Origin: Tetramitus jugosus
Taxonomy: Eukaryota > Protista > Heterolobosea
Assembly: GCA_937625935.1 (NCBI GenBank)
Contig: OW569347.1
Location: 124,001-188,000, forward strand
Length of the DNA: 64,000 bases
Direction: 5' to 3'
Part shown: piece after piece, positions 6,521 through 50,107 of the stretch
How positions within the stretch are numbered: the stretch's first letter is position 1
Layout of the letters: every line of letters begins with the position of its first letter
The notes under the pieces: model-generated
What the model was told of the DNA's origin: nothing
Seen by the model: only the letters and a program-made list of their open reading frames with translations
Databases searched by the model: none
Program-made: the position numbers and the translations under genes

Positions 6521-6738
6521 TTCCAGTTCTGAGTCTTCGCTTTTGATTGAGTTGTGTGTATTTTCCGATTGAAGTATTGAAAAACTCCGTGTTTGTCAAC
6601 ATTTACAATCATCCATCAAATCCAAATGTCCTTGTGTGGGGATCGTTCGCACACTCCCCCTTAACTTCCAACCCGTTTCTCTCACTGAAAAAAAAACCAT
6701 CATCCATATATTACTATACTGTACAACATATCAAAACT

Positions 6739-7728
6739 ATGAGAAATATTATTATTGCTGTTCTCGTTGCTTTGTTTTTGGTTGCTTTTGTAGCAGCTGC
6801 TGATAACTCTGCTTGCTTGAATGCTTGTGTCTCCTCTGGCTCTAGCAAGAGTACCTGCAGAAAGCTCTGTACTTTGGTTGCCAAGAGTGAAGAAGAAGAA
6901 GAGGAAGACTGGAAGGTCTATGGTAACGCAAGCAACGGTGGTCAATGGAACGCTGGCTTTGAATGGACATCCAAGGACGACCAAGAAGAGATTGATGAAG
7001 AGCGCTGGAAGGTTCACGGAAACGTTGCCAACGGTGGAAAGTGGAATGCTGGTTTTGAATACAACTCCAATGATGACGAGGAGGAAATTGAAGACTGGAA
7101 GGTTCACGGTAACGTTGCCAATGGTGGTCAATGGAACGCAGGTTTCGAATGGACCTCCAAGGACGACCAAGAAGAGATTGATGAAGAAGACTGGAAGGTC
7201 TATGGCAATGCCGCAAACGGTGGCCAATGGCAAGCAGGTTTCGAATGGACCTCAAAGGACGATGCTGAAGAGATTGACGAAGAAGACTGGAAGGTTTACG
7301 GAAATGCTGCAAATGGTGGCCAATGGCAAGCAGGTTTCGAATGGACTTCCAAGGACGATGAAGAAGACTGGGTGACTGCTCAAGACGACGACGAAGAAGA
7401 AGACTGGAAGGTCTATGGAAATGCAAGCAACGGTGGCCAATGGAATGCTGGCTTTGAATGGACATCCAAGGATGACGAGGAAGAAGTTGAAGACTGGAAG
7501 GTTCACGGAAACGTTGCCAATGGTGGAAAGTGGAATGCTGGTTTCGAATGGACTTCCAAGGACGACCAAGAAGAGATTGATGAAGAAGACTGGTATGTCA
7601 ACGGAAACGTAGGCAACAATGGCTTCAATGCTGGTGCTGGTTACCAAAACGGTGGCTTCAAGGCAGGAGGTAACGTTGACAACAGAGGCAACTGGGGTGT
7701 CGGTGCTTCATACTCTGTTCGCTTCTAA
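6739..7728 (+). CDS. Secreted repeat polyprotein: signal peptide, CX3C-X9-CX3C module, 7 Trp/Gly-rich 22-aa cores with acidic spacers, Gly-rich C-terminal unit
   Basis: ATG 6739 gives MRNIIIAVLVALFLVAFVAAA (signal peptide); repeats WKV(Y/H)GN(A/V)(S/A)NGG(Q/K)W(N/Q)AGFEWTSK followed by DD(Q)EEIDEED; AATAAA just after the stop. Confidence 0.9.
   Translation: MRNIIIAVLVALFLVAFVAAADNSACLNACVSSGSSKSTCRKLCTLVAKSEEEEEEDWKVYGNASNGGQWNAGFEWTSKDDQEEIDEERWKVHGNVANGGKWNAGFEYNSNDDEEEIEDWKVHGNVANGGQWNAGFEWTSKDDQEEIDEEDWKVYGNAANGGQWQAGFEWTSKDDAEEIDEEDWKVYGNAANGGQWQAGFEWTSKDDEEDWVTAQDDDEEEDWKVYGNASNGGQWNAGFEWTSKDDEEEVEDWKVHGNVANGGKWNAGFEWTSKDDQEEIDEEDWYVNGNVGNNGFNAGAGYQNGGFKAGGNVDNRGNWGVGASYSVRF
6910..7590 (+). 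repeat. Coding tandem repeat array of about 90-96 bp units (7 full units plus a degenerate WVTAQ unit)
   Basis: Recurring tggaaggt...gaatggac.tc.aaggacga units that differ mainly at synonymous sites. Confidence 0.95.
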
Positions 7729-7860
7729 AGAGCAATAAACAACGATTCTAAGCTGTACCAAAATACTCGCACTTGCTCTTGTTACACCATTCCTCTTGGT
7801 CAGGTTTCCATTGCGTAGTGTCATCTTCCTTCCAACACAAGGACATGTTTCGTGTAATTT

Positions 7861-8190
7861 TTTTTTTCATACAACCTGTGTTGCCCCTTTATTCTATACA
7901 CTACAGTGAGACATGATTCCGCTCAGCACCGCTAGGTGATGAGCAGTGTTTCATCTCTCTTCACAACAGAATTGATATACACCTTGTGTTGTGCCTTGAT
8001 GCAGGCACGTTTGGTAGAGTCTACGACTCCTTTAATCCTTTTCTCTGCCTCCCTCTTCTTGCGTCCTTTAAGCTTCAGTTCCTCCAGAAGTTCCTCCCTA
8101 AAGTCTTCCTCTTTACCCATCAGACCTTCAAGAAGCCTGTCCAGTCCAAAAGGACATTTCAAGAAATAATTCCACTCCTTCGGTGGCCGA
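7861..8190 (-). mobile_element. 5'-truncated non-LTR retroelement copy E1 upstream of tRNA-Leu
   Basis: Oligo(T) 7858-7867 (poly(A) tail on the minus strand), AATAAA (TTTATT 7888-7893), 16-bp TSD ATGTTTCGTGTAATTT at 7845-7860 and 8468-8483; encoded peptide matches the E3 C-terminus. Confidence 0.8.
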
Positions 8191-8196
8191 ATGTTT

Positions 8197-8453
8197 TTTT
8201 AATACAACAAATGGTGCTCACGCACCACGTTGCGGAACTTTTATTTTTCTTTTGCGTGAGAGAAGGCTTGCCTGCTCTCAATTGCCAAACATGATGAGGT
8301 GCTTGCCCAGTGGAGTGGCAGGCCTACGCAACAGGATTCATTCTCTTCTTGGAATGTTGTTTTGTTCCCTTCTTCAGGGATTCGTTGCGAGGGCCTCCAC
8401 TACCATCTGGAGCACCACTGGTGAGATCAGATGGCTCCGTAGTCCTAGTACTG
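8197..8453 (-). mobile_element. Second short poly(A)-tailed retro-insertion E2 nested at the 5' junction of E1
   Basis: Oligo(T) 8194-8200, same TTGTAT(T/G)-A(n) 3' end and AATAAA as E1 and E3; 20-bp TSD CCTTCGGTGGCCGAATGTTT at 8177-8196 and 8454-8473. Confidence 0.75.
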
Positions 8454-15393: not shown

Positions 15394-15689
15394 GTGCCAA
15401 CGGAGATTGGCAGTCATTGACTTTTTCATCCCATTGAGTCCACCAGTTACTTCTTCGATCGCATCGACCTCTATTCCCATCATTCCTACCAGGTAGTCTC
15501 GGCTCGTCTCCTCTTCAATATGACACCGCACACAGGTAATGCCACTTCACGTCTGCGCGTGGACCATACTCGAGCTTCCGACCACATGAAGACACCCTTG
15601 TTTCTAAAGATTTTTTTTATTTTTACTTTTTTAAAAATGGTTCTAAAAATAGGTTTTTGCTTCTGTCGTGCATGTTTATGGAACAAGAA

Positions 15690-15762
15690 GGTCGTTTAGC
15701 TCAGTCGGTAGAGCGTTGGTCTAATAAGCCATTGGTCGCAGGTTCGATCCCTGCAACGACCA
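15690..15762 (+). tRNA. tRNA-Ile (anticodon AAT)
   Basis: GGTCGTT/AACGACC acceptor, TAGCTCAGTCGGTAGAGC D-arm, CT-AAT-AA loop, GGTTCGATCC. Confidence 0.95.
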
Positions 15763-16248
15763 CTCATTTTCTTTGTTCTGGCGCCAAGTATTTTATTCTG
15801 TTCAGATCACTTAATAGTCTTAAACATCGAATTGGTGGTTTGATTAGCTTATTGGTATTTGCATGTATTGAGACTTGACTAGTGGAACTAGGGAAGGGCA
15901 GTCAAGTGTACTTGACCAATAGCACTGACCAATTTTATAGAACAAATTCATCACTTATCCTCGAAAAAAATTCAAGATTCTCCTAATTCTTTGCACTTGA
16001 CCTGTAATTCACAGCTTTCTCATGTTTCCATGGAATAGGTGTTGTATCGAAACAATGTTCTACTTTTCCCCGCAGTCAATAGTCCGACGGTTGGTCAACT
16101 AAAATTATTTCTTTGTTGAACCTTCTATGTTTTAGTAAAGTGACTAATTAGTTTTGTGCACTTAGTTTTTGTCAACCAGAACAAACGGAATTGATTGGCG
16201 GTAATTTCATAATCGACAGACCACCAGCACAACAAAAATCTGGAAGAG

Positions 16249-21400: not shown

Positions 21401-24010
21401 ATGAAAAAATCATTTTCATTCTCTTCTCGACTCAAGCATCGAGGAAGCACACTCATTGGTTCTCCCGGTGATCACCACCTCATTGATTCACCCACTTCTT
21501 CACTATCGTCTTCACCTTCAGCATCATCCATGTCACCATCATCAACAATAGCATCATTAGAGCCCATTGACTTTGCTCAATTGTTCACACAGTATCGATT
21601 CCCGTTCGAAGACGTGTTCGACAATGAAGAATGCAGAAAACAGTTCAAGGATCACTTGATTGAGATGAGCAACGAAGAAAGTATCATTTTTTATGAAGTG
21701 TGTGAAGAGTATAGAAGAATGAAGAGTGATAGGAATCGATTCTATACGGCCATTCATCTCATTATGAGATTTATTGAACCGGGCAGTGATTTTGAATTGA
21801 ATTTACCACAACGAGTACGCAATGATTGTCTCGTCCAATTCAAACAACACTCCAATATCAACTCTTGTCCCGAATCATTGTTTGACAAGGTTTCGAGCAC
21901 CATTTTTCTTCAAATGAAATTGGATGCGTACCCGAGATGGAATCACTCTTCCGACTTTAAATCATTCATTACACTGTTGATCAAGAGAGATAGGCACGTA
22001 CTGGACACGATTGCCGTTCGAAATCAAAGCAACAAGTCATCATCATCATCATCATCAAATACGAATCACAGTAATAACAATAACAATACAAGTGATCAAG
22101 ATGACAATCACAACAACAACAACAACAACAACAATAACAATGATAATTCACTGAGTTTCCGCCCTCGATGGATGAGCGACATTGATCGCATGACACAAAA
22201 CAAGAAACAAAACGCAGCCAACAGCAACAACACAATGACCAAAATCAGAGACATGTTCATGATGCATCACAGACAGGAGAGAAGACCGTCGAACCCTACG
22301 GCACCTACACTGGCACAATTGAATTCATCTCTGTTTGATGACGATGATGATCATCACAAGAGAAGGAGAAACGGAGGAGGAATAGGAGGCGAGTACGATT
22401 CGGATGATGAGTACGAAGATGATGATGATGATGTGAGTGTTGTTGTGATTCATGGTGCATCCATGTTGAGTGAAAATAGTTGCAACATTAACAGTACGAG
22501 TAGTATCAGCAGCAACAACAACCACAACAGTAGTAATAGCAGTAGTCCAATGGTACCAGCAATGGACAAGCATCGGTCCATGGTTGTGCCTCAATTGTCA
22601 TCTCCATTGTCGTCACCATTGTCTGCTGCGTCTTCCTCTGCATCGCCACTCTCTTCCTACTCGAATAATGCTTCTCCGGTCGTTGGTCATGGCGGAAAGA
22701 TGAATGGTAAGAATATTGTTCATCACACGTACAATGCATCGTATGACACGGTGGATATCTGGGGCACACTCGTTGAAGAACAATTGAGAGAAGAGCAGGA
22801 GAACAGTGCAGATGGCGATGGATCAATGGATCACATGGATGACAACACTGGCTCATCATCCAACAACTATCATAACAATGGTGGTGGTGGTGGTAGTGGT
22901 AGTGGTCACAACAACAATGGTAGCAACAATACAAACAATTCGAATACGTCTCTCAGGAGAATGATTAAGAAATTGGGAGAATTACCAAATGAATTGTCAT
23001 TGGCTGACTTCAATGACCCATATGTGTACGGTCGTGATTTTGATCGTGTGAGAGAGGATGGTGCATCGTTGGACGGTTGGGAAAAGTTGGATCTAGGCAG
23101 CTCTACAAGTGTGCCTGCTCATTTAACGGCCTACATTGGCAATGAAAAGTTTAATATTGTGGATCAGGAGTCATTCGAGTGCATTCGACGGTTTCGATTC
23201 AGTGGACGCTTACCCATCTCTGCTCGCAGAGCAGTGGAATACTTTTGTGCACCAGAAAATAGTATTAAATTGGATCCAACATTGACATCTGCACCTACCT
23301 TTTTAGTCATGGTGAAGAATTTGGATGGTGAAACAGGACATTCATCGTCAAATCACTCGCAAGACTCGAGAACTCATGGATCACCTCGACTAACACCGAG
23401 GGATTTCTCACATGCCTATGCGGGATTCATTTCCCATCATACGCACAAGTATTCCTGGCCAATTAAGAATCGTTCCTTCTTGACGGTGCAATCTGTCATC
23501 TATGAAGAACCATCAGATGATGAAGAGGACAATGCAGGACAATACCTGATTTATAAGAAGAGTGTGAACATTGAGGATGCTGTGATATCTTCAGTTGAAA
23601 AACTTCGTGGCCACATGACAGAAAGTGTTATTTTTAAGCAAGAAGCGAAGGGATGTAGCTTCACTGTCATCACGTGGTATGATATGAAGAAGCAATTCAG
23701 TAACTCTACATTCCAAAAAATCATGAAGAAGAGTGCGATCAGTTTTGCTGAACCAGCCTCATGGGTTGAATGGGATCAGAGGCAACCAATCTCCAAGCGA
23801 GTATCAACAATACTCAGCAGCAAACCAACTCTTTATGATACTCTAGAGTATTATCTTTTGGTGAAGGAGTTGAGTACGAAGGAGTCTGTTCAAAAGAAGA
23901 TTCGACGAACGATGAAGACATTGAACACGTTGGTTAATTTTGAATTGAACCCATATGCCGCGGTCGAGACAATTTCCAAGTATAACAATCAACAAGAAGC
24001 AACAGATTAA
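21401..24010 (+). CDS. RGS-domain protein with C-terminal START/SRPBCC-like domain
   Basis: N-terminal RGS (FKDHL..EMSNEESIIFY...FI.PGS..ELNLP...MKLDAYPRW); C-terminal YSWPIKNRSFL...VEKLRGHM is START-like. Confidence 0.8.
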   Translation: MKKSFSFSSRLKHRGSTLIGSPGDHHLIDSPTSSLSSSPSASSMSPSSTIASLEPIDFAQLFTQYRFPFEDVFDNEECRKQFKDHLIEMSNEESIIFYEVCEEYRRMKSDRNRFYTAIHLIMRFIEPGSDFELNLPQRVRNDCLVQFKQHSNINSCPESLFDKVSSTIFLQMKLDAYPRWNHSSDFKSFITLLIKRDRHVLDTIAVRNQSNKSSSSSSSNTNHSNNNNNTSDQDDNHNNNNNNNNNNDNSLSFRPRWMSDIDRMTQNKKQNAANSNNTMTKIRDMFMMHHRQERRPSNPTAPTLAQLNSSLFDDDDDHHKRRRNGGGIGGEYDSDDEYEDDDDDVSVVVIHGASMLSENSCNINSTSSISSNNNHNSSNSSSPMVPAMDKHRSMVVPQLSSPLSSPLSAASSSASPLSSYSNNASPVVGHGGKMNGKNIVHHTYNASYDTVDIWGTLVEEQLREEQENSADGDGSMDHMDDNTGSSSNNYHNNGGGGGSGSGHNNNGSNNTNNSNTSLRRMIKKLGELPNELSLADFNDPYVYGRDFDRVREDGASLDGWEKLDLGSSTSVPAHLTAYIGNEKFNIVDQESFECIRRFRFSGRLPISARRAVEYFCAPENSIKLDPTLTSAPTFLVMVKNLDGETGHSSSNHSQDSRTHGSPRLTPRDFSHAYAGFISHHTHKYSWPIKNRSFLTVQSVIYEEPSDDEEDNAGQYLIYKKSVNIEDAVISSVEKLRGHMTESVIFKQEAKGCSFTVITWYDMKKQFSNSTFQKIMKKSAISFAEPASWVEWDQRQPISKRVSTILSSKPTLYDTLEYYLLVKELSTKESVQKKIRRTMKTLNTLVNFELNPYAAVETISKYNNQQEATD

Positions 24011-40681: not shown

Positions 40682-43600
40682 TCAGTCACTCGTTTCAGGT
40701 TTGAGAGCCAACTCTTTGACTGATCCCAGATCCTTCATTTGAATGGGTCCTCTAAAGGTGGCATAGCTAGGAAGTGCTTGATTCAACCGTACAGCAGGTG
40801 ATTTGTCTCCAACAGAGGAGTTTGACATCACTCCCAGAGACGACTCGAATCCCAGGCTCAACTCTATATCCATCAGCGATCTCATCATTCGTCTGTTAAT
40901 TTGAATGATCGGTCTCTTGTCCTTGACATATTTAAAGGCTCTGGACAATGCCCACTGCTTACGCCTCATCATATATGCGACAATGAATGCGGCACTCCTG
41001 CCCACACCCAAGTGAGAATGAACGAGTACTGTATGACCCTTCTCAAAACAATTTTCGACATGCTGGTACAATTCATCAAAGCACTTGACCAGTGTAAAAG
41101 ATGGATCCAATCTTTGGAATCTGACATTCTTGTATTCGAACTTGCTCTGGTGGTAGTTTGGAGATTCCGCAGATAAGTTGACAATGTGCGTGATTCCAAA
41201 CGATTGTAGTTCCTTTACATTGGAGCTATTCCACTCGCTGCCGAGGAAAAGACGACGTGTTATTCTCGATGGAGGTTCCATTTGTCCCACAATCTTATCA
41301 ATCTGCAAATAGGTGAGATTCTGCTTCTCCGTCATTTTCATAGTGAGCTCTTTCTTTAGAACCTCCTTGATAGATGTTGTATCGACCCTGTTCAGATCTT
41401 TCTGTTCCTTCAATAGCTCCCACAAGCGGACGACAATCTCAGTTTCTTCAGGTTGCGAGATCATAGGACCATCAGAGTTTGTTGAATTATCCAAAATACT
41501 CAATAACTTATCTCTTGCCTTGTTGAAGCTAAAACTGACATACTTCATCACATCCTCACTATCTTCCAGAGATTTTCCTCTTCGATGATTTTGAGGCAGT
41601 ACTCTTTGAGATCTACTCTGAAAAATATTGGGCTTGTTTAACATTTCATTCTCTTGATGTTTTCTAACTAAAGCTCCCAAGTAAGCTCTGGAGGCCATCT
41701 GGATGGGATTGATTCCTTTCTGTTCAATGTACTTGGCAAAATCAGGATGTCGAACAGCAATATCCGCTAGTGTTTGCAATGCTAAAAATACGGAATCCTT
41801 ATTACTGTTGTTTATGAAGTGAATTAAGATATCTGGTCCTCCATCTCTCACAAAATTATCCAAGAGTTCCTTGTTATCAATGTTTGCAATTTGCTTTAAC
41901 AAAGAACAGCAATTAAGATGCAGCTCTATTCTATGACGAGAAGGTTGATCACATATAATCTTAAATAAACATTGGATCAATCCTTCGGAAACAAATTTCA
42001 ACGCTACTTCCTCATTCTTTGTCACTTCAATCAAAATTGAGAAAACTTGGTTTTTGTCTTGAACATATGGTGAGTTCAACAATATGTCGAAGTATTTGAA
42101 CTCTCCAATCCTAGATATTACAAGAGTGAGTGATGTCTTCTCATTTTTGTCTCCTATCATTTGAAGAAGTCTATTGAGAGCTATTTGAATCATGCTGTGC
42201 TTGTTCTCCAAATTGTAGTTACTTAAATCAATCATCGCGCAGAGTGAGTAAAACAACGAAGCATCATCCGTGTAGTTCTCGATGAAAAATGTTAATGTAT
42301 CCCACACTTTGTGCTTTTCCAGAAGAACATGATTTCCAGGATCAGAAGCTAGCTCCTTGATTTTTCTTGAACTTTCCCTCAAAATATACCATGGATTATC
42401 TTCCTTGACCCTTCTTTCAAATGCATGTAGTATTGTTTCAAAGGTAGGTCGATTTTTTGGATCATTACACGTGCATATCACTATTAGGTCTGTGAAAATC
42501 TGAGGCCACCAAGGAGGTAAGATGACATTCTCACCATTCAAAAGAGGTTCGCGTAACAGCTCGTATCCAATTGTATCATCTACTACAAAGTTAGTATCTG
42601 GATGTTCTCTCATATACAACAGCTCGAACAGCATAACACCGAACGAGAACACATCATATGTATAGTCGTAGTAAGTGATGTCCTCGTCAGTCATGCCTCC
42701 CATGATAATCTCTGTTGGCATGTAAAGTACAGTTCCATATCCCTGGGGTCCTTTAATTTTCTTCTCCAGTCCTTGTGTTATTCTGCTAATACCAAAGTCA
42801 GCCACTTTAATTGTTAGTTTATCGTCCACAAGCAAATTAAGGGGTTTCAAGTCCAAGTGCAAAATCGATCGATTGTGAAGGTAATTCATTCCGCAACATA
42901 TATCTTCTATCATTCGGGTAAATTGATTATCAGTTATGTTCATATTTTGCATAACATCATGTAAGCTCCCGTTGTCCATGTACTCAGTGACGAGACAAAT
43001 ATTGGGTAAACTCGTGCTCAATCCCATAAATAACAACACATTTGGATGTCGAAGACTCGACATTATGGAAGCCTCTTCTTTCAGTTTTCCGACAATCCTA
43101 TCCTTCTCTGTTTCATCCTCAACTATGGAAGCACTAAACTTCAATCTTTTGATAGCAACAAGTTTTCCCCACAACAAACCCTTGTACACTTCTCCAAAGA
43201 AACCCTCTGCTACTTTCTTCCCAAGTGTTAAATTTTCGTAAGGCACTTGCCATGGTTCAGTTCTATCTTCTATCTCCAGTTGTTGAGCATTGTTATCATC
43301 TCCATTCTTGTCCCTTGATCGTTTCACTGAGTGTTGTAGCGAACGCCTCACATCAGTTGTGAAAATTTGAATGTTGTCCCAATTAGGAACAACCCTTCTC
43401 ATACATGTGAAAACTTCTTCACAGAACTTTATCTGGTCGTCTTCCAAGGCGGTCAGTAAATGGCTAAAACTAGTCTGTAATCCTTGTGCTGCACAATTCT
43501 TGACCGAGCTAGAAATGTGATCAATCCATTGTTGCAACAGATCCTCTGTTTCAACAGAACATACTATAGTCCTTCCATAAGACTTAACCGTAAAACAATT

Positions 43601-43990
43601 TTCTCTTTTTTTGTGCCATTTCTGAACCTTTTGAACTTGATAGATTGAGCCGCTCTCAATGGTCATCATAGTCTTTTTATCCTTTGATGACTTGAATATC
43701 AATAACGCGTCTCCACTGAGAACCATATAACGCTTTACCCATGGCCTCAGTTGTGAAGTTGTAAGAAGTTGAAGGTTACCTTCAAAACTCTCTCTATCCA
43801 TCATGAGATTTCCTCTTGGAGTAGCAGATGGACTCAGCTTGAAATTCGCGGTAGAACACATATTGAGAAGAGAACTATTGGAGTAACTTCTTCTCTTGTT
43901 CACAATAGGTCGAAAAGATATAGAATCTACTGCATTTGGAATATTGTTACTCACAACAGGAGAGGATATCTCACTAGAAAACTCATCCAT
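40682..43990 (-). CDS. PH + TKL kinase + ARM repeats + DEK-C + Slingshot-type DSP (catalytic Cys to Ser)
   Basis: PH (WVKRYMVL...QQWIDHI); kinase (GFFGEVYKG, VAIK, HLDLKPLNLL, DFG, GTVLYMPTE); QMEPPSRI..LFLGSEWNSSN and VLVHSHLGVGRSAAFIVAYMM. Confidence 0.88.
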   Translation of the reverse strand: MDEFSSEISSPVVSNNIPNAVDSISFRPIVNKRRSYSNSSLLNMCSTANFKLSPSATPRGNLMMDRESFEGNLQLLTTSQLRPWVKRYMVLSGDALLIFKSSKDKKTMMTIESGSIYQVQKVQKWHKKRENCFTVKSYGRTIVCSVETEDLLQQWIDHISSSVKNCAAQGLQTSFSHLLTALEDDQIKFCEEVFTCMRRVVPNWDNIQIFTTDVRRSLQHSVKRSRDKNGDDNNAQQLEIEDRTEPWQVPYENLTLGKKVAEGFFGEVYKGLLWGKLVAIKRLKFSASIVEDETEKDRIVGKLKEEASIMSSLRHPNVLLFMGLSTSLPNICLVTEYMDNGSLHDVMQNMNITDNQFTRMIEDICCGMNYLHNRSILHLDLKPLNLLVDDKLTIKVADFGISRITQGLEKKIKGPQGYGTVLYMPTEIIMGGMTDEDITYYDYTYDVFSFGVMLFELLYMREHPDTNFVVDDTIGYELLREPLLNGENVILPPWWPQIFTDLIVICTCNDPKNRPTFETILHAFERRVKEDNPWYILRESSRKIKELASDPGNHVLLEKHKVWDTLTFFIENYTDDASLFYSLCAMIDLSNYNLENKHSMIQIALNRLLQMIGDKNEKTSLTLVISRIGEFKYFDILLNSPYVQDKNQVFSILIEVTKNEEVALKFVSEGLIQCLFKIICDQPSRHRIELHLNCCSLLKQIANIDNKELLDNFVRDGGPDILIHFINNSNKDSVFLALQTLADIAVRHPDFAKYIEQKGINPIQMASRAYLGALVRKHQENEMLNKPNIFQSRSQRVLPQNHRRGKSLEDSEDVMKYVSFSFNKARDKLLSILDNSTNSDGPMISQPEETEIVVRLWELLKEQKDLNRVDTTSIKEVLKKELTMKMTEKQNLTYLQIDKIVGQMEPPSRITRRLFLGSEWNSSNVKELQSFGITHIVNLSAESPNYHQSKFEYKNVRFQRLDPSFTLVKCFDELYQHVENCFEKGHTVLVHSHLGVGRSAAFIVAYMMRRKQWALSRAFKYVKDKRPIIQINRRMMRSLMDIELSLGFESSLGVMSNSSVGDKSPAVRLNQALPSYATFRGPIQMKDLGSVKELALKPETSD

Positions 43991-49658: not shown

Positions 49659-49738
49659 TGATTATGTTTCGTTTTTGTTTTTTGTTGTTGTGAATGCTTC
49701 CTGTTCTTGGTTGAAGTCATGGGCAAAAGCAAAATGGA

Positions 49739-49811
49739 TGGTCGTTGCAGGGATCGAACCTGCGACCAATGGCTTATTAGACCAACGCTCTACCGACTGA
49801 GCTAAACGACC
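49739..49811 (-). tRNA. tRNA-Ile (anticodon AAT), identical to the copy at 15690
   Basis: Exact reverse complement of 15690-15762. Confidence 0.95.
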
Positions 49812-50107
49812 TTCTTGTGTTACTTATAGTCACGACAGACGCGACAGTCTATGTTTAGAAAAATGTGGGTAGCAGAATTCTAGAGGAACCAATGGCATGG
49901 GGTGGGTCCTTTCAATATGAGGTATTTGCAACAATAATCAAATCGTCGTCTTTGAGTCACTTTGGTCATTGCGTTGTCTTGGCAAGAGAAGAATTTGCCT
50001 GTTGAAGAGACCACAGGCCGGAGCGGGAGAGAAAATTGTAAGGGGATTAAGTTTGGTCAAAGCTAAAAACAAAATCACAAAAACCAATACGAATATCGAC
50101 GTCAAAC

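Follow-up and report, generated by a model that had tools for sequence, protein, structure and literature searches.

The killing of Gram-negative prey by free-living protists is partly known, and the effectors described are mostly saposin-like or enzymatic: amoebapores and naegleriapores, for instance, are saposin-like, helical and disulfide-bonded. Amoebapores, naegleriapores, acanthaporin and the Bad proteins of Dictyostelium are described as pore-formers or bacteriolytic proteins, and naegleriapores as deriving from a pre-pro-multipeptide (PMC6723116, PMC7886984); a role against ingested bacteria and an origin of this kind are proposed for the protein reported here.

The closest described systems are the glycine-rich peptides of insects (attacin, diptericin, hymenoptaecin and gloverin). 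A structural model of attacin is reported as a sheet like those of membrane barrels, with a predicted trimer, and the peptide as damaging the outer membrane (PMC10690985); attacins are also reported to inhibit outer-membrane protein synthesis (PMC4874388). The barrel architecture of these peptides is described as so far predicted only, their net charge as low, and diptericins as combining a Pro-rich with a Gly-rich part (PMC12940664). For Camponotus floridanus, hymenoptaecin is described as the product of a single-exon multipeptide precursor in which about seven Gly-rich repeats (97-aa units) stand behind a signal and pro-region; RR and EAEP sites serve Kex2, Kex1 and dipeptidyl aminopeptidase, and repeat number varies between species (PMC3415428). 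Here we describe a precursor from Tetramitus jugosus, together with its relatives, and compare it with these systems.

Results

The precursor

The precursor (P0001) is a protein of 329 aa encoded by an intronless ORF at positions 6739–7728 of the window (the whole 64-kb stretch of DNA that was analysed), on the plus strand, as are all of its features given below. It opens with a predicted signal peptide (aa 1–21, 6739–6801), visible in the sequence as a hydrophobic stretch (aa 4–21) with an Ala-Ala-Ala end and in the structure model as a helix (2–22). An N-terminal module (aa 22–50, 6802–6888) holds four cysteines, C26-x3-C30-x9-C40-x3-C44, in alpha-hairpinin-type spacing; in the model its only element is a helix at 40–49, of low confidence (pLDDT ~50 or below). 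Seven cores of 22 aa, recognised by sequence pattern, occupy aa 58–79 (6910–6975), 90–111 (7006–7071; with the start E-R-W), 120–141 (7096–7161), 152–173 (7192–7257), 184–205 (7288–7353), 223–244 (7405–7470) and 253–274 (7495–7560). The long spacer before the sixth core contains a mini-module of five residues (aa 211–215, 7369–7383) with an E-D-W start of its own. Eight Asp/Glu spacers (spanning 6889–7590) place E-x last before each module start, and the chain closes with a terminal module of 45 aa (aa 285–329, 7591–7725): four Gly/Asn-rich strands (pLDDT ~80) and a C-terminal Phe.

The first-pass annotation had described a signal peptide, seven cores of this pattern and Asp/Glu-rich spacers of variable length, all of which were recovered; its anatomy was nevertheless incomplete, the four-Cys and terminal modules having been overlooked. 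The cores are slightly cationic, as had been stated (net charge, K+R−D−E, of +1 in six and +2 in one), while spacers measure 8–17 aa and carry charges of −6 to −12; the net charge of the mature chain is −50. Gly accounts for 18–27% and Asn for 14–20% of composition; cores and terminal module (Gly 27%) are free of Cys. Dibasic sites, described as absent, are indeed absent around the cores, but one pair (RK, aa 41–42) lies within the Cys module. A six-frame scan of the whole 64 kb found the core pattern nowhere outside the ORF.

Conservation of the cores had also been claimed, and it is borne out at the level of codons. Differences between cores are mostly silent (pS 0.64, pN 0.09, dN/dS 0.066 over 21 core pairs); the cores are therefore selected protein, neither chance nor DNA repeat, and all seven are under purifying selection.

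Genomic setting and RNA contigs

A short-chain dehydrogenase gene lies upstream of P0001, and a tRNA-Leu gene followed by a GST gene lie downstream; other genes of the window (Snf7, PP2C, RGS-START, Arp2 and others) are ordinary eukaryotic ones. The Arp2 gene has a GT-AG intron, which indicates a spliceosomal eukaryote, and the genome is compact and intron-poor. No RiPP enzyme family was found among the Pfam matches of 25 other window ORFs (of 38 listed).

Several other observations were made in the window. The non-coding segment between the P0001 gene and tRNA-Leu (7860–8450) reaches 10–80 times the depth of single-copy genes in the DNA-like run X1 and shows many variant contigs and joints; it has the look of a high-copy repeat, or of a small mobile element lying next to a tRNA gene, and it has no Rfam match. 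An inverted repeat of 130 nt (87%), reaching beyond the tRNA itself, is shared by two tRNA-Ile(AAT) genes (15641–15770 and 49731–49860). Two ORFs encode domain fusions: a protein of 1102 aa with PH, kinase, ARM-like and dual-specificity phosphatase domains (40682–43990, minus strand), and a fusion of RGS with a START-like domain (21401–24010, plus strand), a combination that PMC3971589 does not link to Naegleria.

Sequencing runs place the region in soil, groundwater, sediment and hydrocarbon metagenomes and in three coded organisms, and metatranscriptome contigs from three studies span the P0001 ORF. Contigs in runs X7 and X13 both start at 6719; those of X8 and X10, two separate studies, end at 7747 and 7746, just past an AATAAA (7734–7739) that is a candidate polyadenylation signal, and the X7 contig continues to 7811. 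The flanks of the gene are empty in X8 and X10 and covered in the DNA-like run X3. Together these data point, weakly, to a transcript about 1 kb long. Depth of the X7 RNA contig is 764 and 505 at the unique ends of the ORF versus 21 and 43 at the neighbours, values that cannot rank genes. Among the differences listed for the ORF in other runs (at least 14), 12 are silent; some may reflect misplaced repeat copies. Loose contig ends in these runs read D-P-E-D-W and E-E-Q-W, that is, as module starts, which suggests paralogues, or they may stem from other organisms in the metagenomes.

A family of relatives

Sequence searches returned four proteins and then 13 representatives, 11 of which carry the motif; the remaining two (P0014 and P0021) are unrelated repeats without the core motif and were rejected as relatives. 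One further relative came from a metagenome locus (P0032) and two from a profile search. The analysis covered 17 proteins, with P0002 and P0006 (longer calls of P0008), P0009–P0011 (the 90% cluster of P0003), P0014 and P0021 left out; P0007 and P0008 belong to a single cluster. All relatives are annotated no further than 'hypothetical protein'. The usual family plan comprises a leader, a variable cargo, 0–7 spacer-flanked cores and a terminal module of 2–8 strands, the last being the most constant part; complete relatives total 4 to 18 strands, and Phe or Trp is the final residue in 12 of the 13 termini examined.

The cargos are diverse. N-regions with 10–16% Pro are found in six relatives and cationic stretches in several, while the arrangement C-x3-C-xn-C-x3-C occurs in two proteins (P0001 of the window and P0003). 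In a single protein, P0015, a cationic spacer cargo (aa 30–70) has the arrangement C-x3-C-x4-C-x3-C, a tachyplesin-type spacing; judged from its cysteines, this segment is possibly a disulfide beta-hairpin peptide. That one cassette carries segments like those of several classes of antimicrobial peptide is the chief pointer to function, and it is one of resemblance.

Searches beyond these relatives, all pattern-limited, confirmed none in prokaryote genomes (33 and 41 stretches) or viral contigs (18 and 66 stretches; exact pattern, 0), and found none in phage and plasmid collections. Two metagenome scans confirmed 0 of 216 and 1 of 45 stretches, respectively; a search for shorter homologues (0 of 92 candidates) was confined to 30–38 aa and is uninformative. 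An HMM built from 21 cores outscored all 200 shuffles for four core-less relatives, whereas against the terminal module of P0001 one of 200 shuffles scored higher. Because the window's own module fails this test, only for the relatives does it support the descent of cores and terminal strands from one source. No description of this protein family was found in the literature covered, which was largely open-access; the family is real and, within that literature, undescribed.

Module boundaries

Each core had been said to start at a D-W (once R-W) junction; the Trp start stands, but the conserved junction is E-x-W rather than D-W. A start pattern blind to upstream residues gave 49 matches in 17 proteins, 47 following a spacer and two inside terminal modules. 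Position −2 is Glu in 47 of the 47 spacer-following starts (a count that overstates independence, since the sites share ancestry) and in neither of the two strand starts inside terminal modules. Position −1 varies (D in 34, Q in six, E in five, R in two), and position +2 after the core is Asp in 29 of 32. The Glu is kept in P0012, P0013, P0016 and P0020, where the spacer looks helical and not poly-acidic. Given that strand starts inside terminal modules lack it, Glu −2 is tied to module boundaries and not to the hairpin fold. The E-x-aromatic start thus points to a processing signal and is the best evidence for processing that the sequences offer.

Four relatives (P0005, P0019, P0033 and P0034) have long Pro-rich N-regions in which S-D or A-D motifs recur and runs of D-A-E-A-E occur, features that suggest a second cut signal and trimming by dipeptidyl-peptidase.

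Predicted hairpin fold and self-association

The cores had been proposed to be beta-hairpins, and three features of the strand pairs agree with this. Insertions of five residues are confined to the turn (26 distinct pairs). All 20 distinct strand pairs that have Lys or Arg at core position 2 have Glu at position 18; Lys18 is seen solely where position 2 is Ser or Thr (four of six, all from three related proteins). Hydropathy of the two faces of the hairpin differs markedly (1.34 vs −2.30). Turn insertions and K/R–E pairing in particular support a predicted hairpin.

The full-chain model called for by the first-pass annotation was poor overall (pLDDT 54), with the four strands of the terminal module at ~80. 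It had no match among PDB folds at E up to 0.001; its best rows were porins, at E >0.01 and TM ~0.2. A viral fold search gave no match at E up to 0.001. The eight-strand terminal module of P0032 modelled better (pLDDT 78) and aligned with Tom40 (Z 9.8, rmsd 2.8, 92 aligned residues) and BtuB (Z 8.9, rmsd 1.5, 81 aligned), Z values of 8–10 that may reflect merely the sheet arrangement common to barrels. Since the alignment is to segments of larger barrels, an open sheet is suggested. Terminal modules are accordingly predicted as curved sheets that resemble parts of outer-membrane barrels.

A model of three copies of the P0001 terminal module scored 0.54, compared to 0.01 for the best of three controls, with contact agreement of at least 97% and partner pLDDT of at least 85. 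The last strand of one copy pairs antiparallel with the opening strand of its neighbour. Of the three interfaces possible, two are confident, so that edge pairing is obtained and the ring is not confidently closed. In the calibration, which used two-copy cases only, 21 of 30 solved pairs from microbes attained the score mark, as did 17 of 29 from eukaryotes, against 0 of 23 microbial and 0 of 30 eukaryotic single chains; among eukaryote pairs lacking an older solved relative, one of seven attained it. The terminal modules of P0001 are predicted to self-associate edge to edge, head-to-tail, a result that may owe something to their likeness to solved barrels and that, as modelled, fits fibrils equally well.

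Comparison with known systems

P0001 and its relatives have much in common with the insect peptides: a predicted signal peptide, and a Cys-free, Gly-rich C-terminal sheet, modelled as antiparallel with one hydrophobic face. The models of P0032 and P0001 parallel the published attacin model in resembling parts of membrane barrels and in oligomerising (PMC10690985), and the low net charge and the Pro-rich plus Gly-rich build described for the insect peptides (PMC12940664) recur, the latter in relatives. They differ in that units here go down to one 22-aa hairpin, that boundaries are acidic and of E-x-aromatic type, and that the host is a microbial eukaryote. The Camponotus precursor (PMC3415428) likewise matches P0001 in its general plan and in about seven repeats, but there the units are far longer than 22 aa and dibasic sites are part of the processing described; in P0001 no furin/Kex2 site flanks a core, and X-P/X-A dipeptides occur in the spacers of relatives and in none of its own.

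No match to Pfam Attacin_C (PF03769), Attacin_N or Gloverin was found with 15 full-length proteins (E up to 1) or with terminal modules alone (10 searched, E up to 10). Neighbours by Atlas features include hymenoptaecin-like, Attacin_C and gloverin clusters, with scores of 0.75–0.86; as all are below 0.9, they are leads only. The family, set apart by Pfam profiles, flanking dibasic sites and Atlas scores, is not a member of the attacins. For one segment (P0012 aa 167–259) the nearest Atlas neighbours were unnamed viral proteins of 70–102 aa (phage and giant-virus clusters, 0.88–0.89), ahead of attacins; no sequence link was found in viral contigs, and PHROGs gave no match (0/10).

Other resemblances are more limited. 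P0001 has no Pfam match to saposin or DUF3430. With plant alpha-hairpinins, which are described as arising from modular precursors (PMC7191063), it shares C-x3-C-xn-C-x3-C (C26, C30, C40, C44), but it has one such module, and the motif, which is short, has evolved separately in several families. Alpha-hairpinins have a helix-loop-helix fold with C1–C4 and C2–C3 disulfides, of which the P0001 model contains the low-confidence helix 40–49. Outer-membrane beta-barrels (Porin_4, YadA anchor) share amphipathic hairpins, a Gly/aromatic pattern, a C-terminal aromatic and weak Pfam matches; in P0001, however, those matches are all under cutoff, the predicted signal peptide is eukaryotic, linkers are acidic and the outer-membrane beta-signal pattern is shifted by two. 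Eukaryotic repetitive RiPP precursors differ in having Kex2-flanked cores and clustered modifying enzymes, neither of which was found for P0001 (for the enzymes, among the 25 other window ORFs scanned). Matches to BRCA1 and GCP6 repeats in PDB sequences were set aside as chance, and one to NCBIfam TapY2, under cutoff, as a match to acidic sequence.

Discussion

Our preferred explanation, to which we give about an even chance, is that P0001 is an attacin/hymenoptaecin-like antibacterial polyprotein of a protist, cut into pieces that stack in outer membranes. The precursor would enter the secretory or lysosomal route, kept soluble and silent by its acidic linkers. A protease directed by acidic residues would then cut directly behind Glu or one position further on; in the former case the six E-Q starts would carry pyroglutamate. 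Released hairpins and short sheets would stack into curved amphipathic assemblies or pores in Gram-negative outer membranes, and bacteria would be killed. Module number varies freely (0–7 cores, 2–8 terminal strands), as in multipeptide precursors. The original proposal is partly supported: hairpins, selection on the cores and the boundary-tied start signal fit a processed multi-peptide precursor, and the cargos of relatives together with the predicted self-association would fit a membrane-active antibacterial role. The charge of the cores (+1 to +2) is low for classic membrane-active peptides and counts against this explanation. The system had further been called a candidate new one; given the overlooked terminal module and the likeness to insect Gly-rich peptides, which the annotation had also missed, it is less unprecedented than claimed.

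A wider reading of the whole family is possible, though we advance it tentatively: that its members are antimicrobial 'arsenal' precursors of microbial eukaryotes, from which an acid-directed protease would free single outer-membrane-like hairpins and short sheets. These would self-assemble into pores or jam BAM, and Pro-rich and disulfide peptides belonging to other classes would be packed along with them.

Edge pairing that extends head-to-tail, as predicted for the terminal module, could go on without limit, and it is here that a structural role deserves thought. Gly/Asn/Trp-rich strands, in released or whole modules, might polymerise into amyloid-like sheets of the cyst wall, a slime coat or the extrusome matrix, and acidic linkers might keep them from assembling early; the Gly- and Asn-rich composition is in keeping with this, and in ciliate granule proteins acidic propieces hold back polymerisation. 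We judge it unlikely. Pfam reveals no curli (Curlin) or wall-protein family; the hairpin has a hydrophobic and a polar face, like the sheets of membrane proteins; and a structural role does not readily account for the exchange of Pro-rich, disulfide and cationic cargos. Were the role structural, the proteins would be a new protist functional-amyloid family.

Quite unlikely, too, is an uncut chain whose hairpins form one self-inserting beta-barrel or sheet, with the acidic linkers as one-sided loops that are protonated in the acid food vacuole and so trigger insertion. Short turns alternate with long loops as described for outer-membrane proteins (PMC13067283), Pfam Porin_4 reaches P0001 aa 11–326 (E 1.5e-5; 25.4 bits, under the cutoff of 27), porins head the fold rows of the full-length model, and bacteriolysis in acid only is reported for Dictyostelium (PMC7886984). 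Those fold rows are nevertheless weak matches to a weak model, acidic loops run contrary to the positive-outside rule (PMC13067283), and the strand totals of some complete relatives are below what a barrel needs. Non-strand cargos lying between modules, and the restriction of Glu −2 to module starts, also count against it.

The aromatic C-termini raise the prospect that killing depends not on pores but on jamming of the BAM complex by peptides that imitate the outer-membrane beta-signal. The motif described for that signal, G-x-x-aromatic-x-aromatic (PMC13067283), is exact in two of 13 termini and near in one, and the reported block of outer-membrane protein synthesis by attacin (PMC4874388) offers a precedent; linear mimics, however, are reported to bind BamA more weakly than cross-linked ones (PMC13067283). 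With Gly and Tyr two residues too far from the end in eight of 13 termini, P0001 included, and with most cores ending S-K and having no terminal aromatic, we regard this as improbable. Signals (cues for aggregation, mating or encystment) or lectin-like agents that bind bacteria without killing are more improbable still: near-identical short peptide repeats are typical of pheromone and neuropeptide precursors and the net charge of the cores is low, but amphipathic hairpins, sheets of 4–8 strands and predicted self-association exceed what a signal needs.

If the attacin-like explanation is true, beta-sheet peptides would be a new class of protist effector. A processed precursor implies a protease that reads acidic sites, and the linear units of 22–45 aa, which are easily synthesised, would provide a minimal system for the attacin-type mode of action (pore vs block of outer-membrane protein assembly). 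On the wider 'arsenal' reading, the family would either parallel insect attacins in protists through convergence or preserve a sign that attacins originated before animals, and the 22-aa hairpin would be a minimal barrel-building antibiotic unit.
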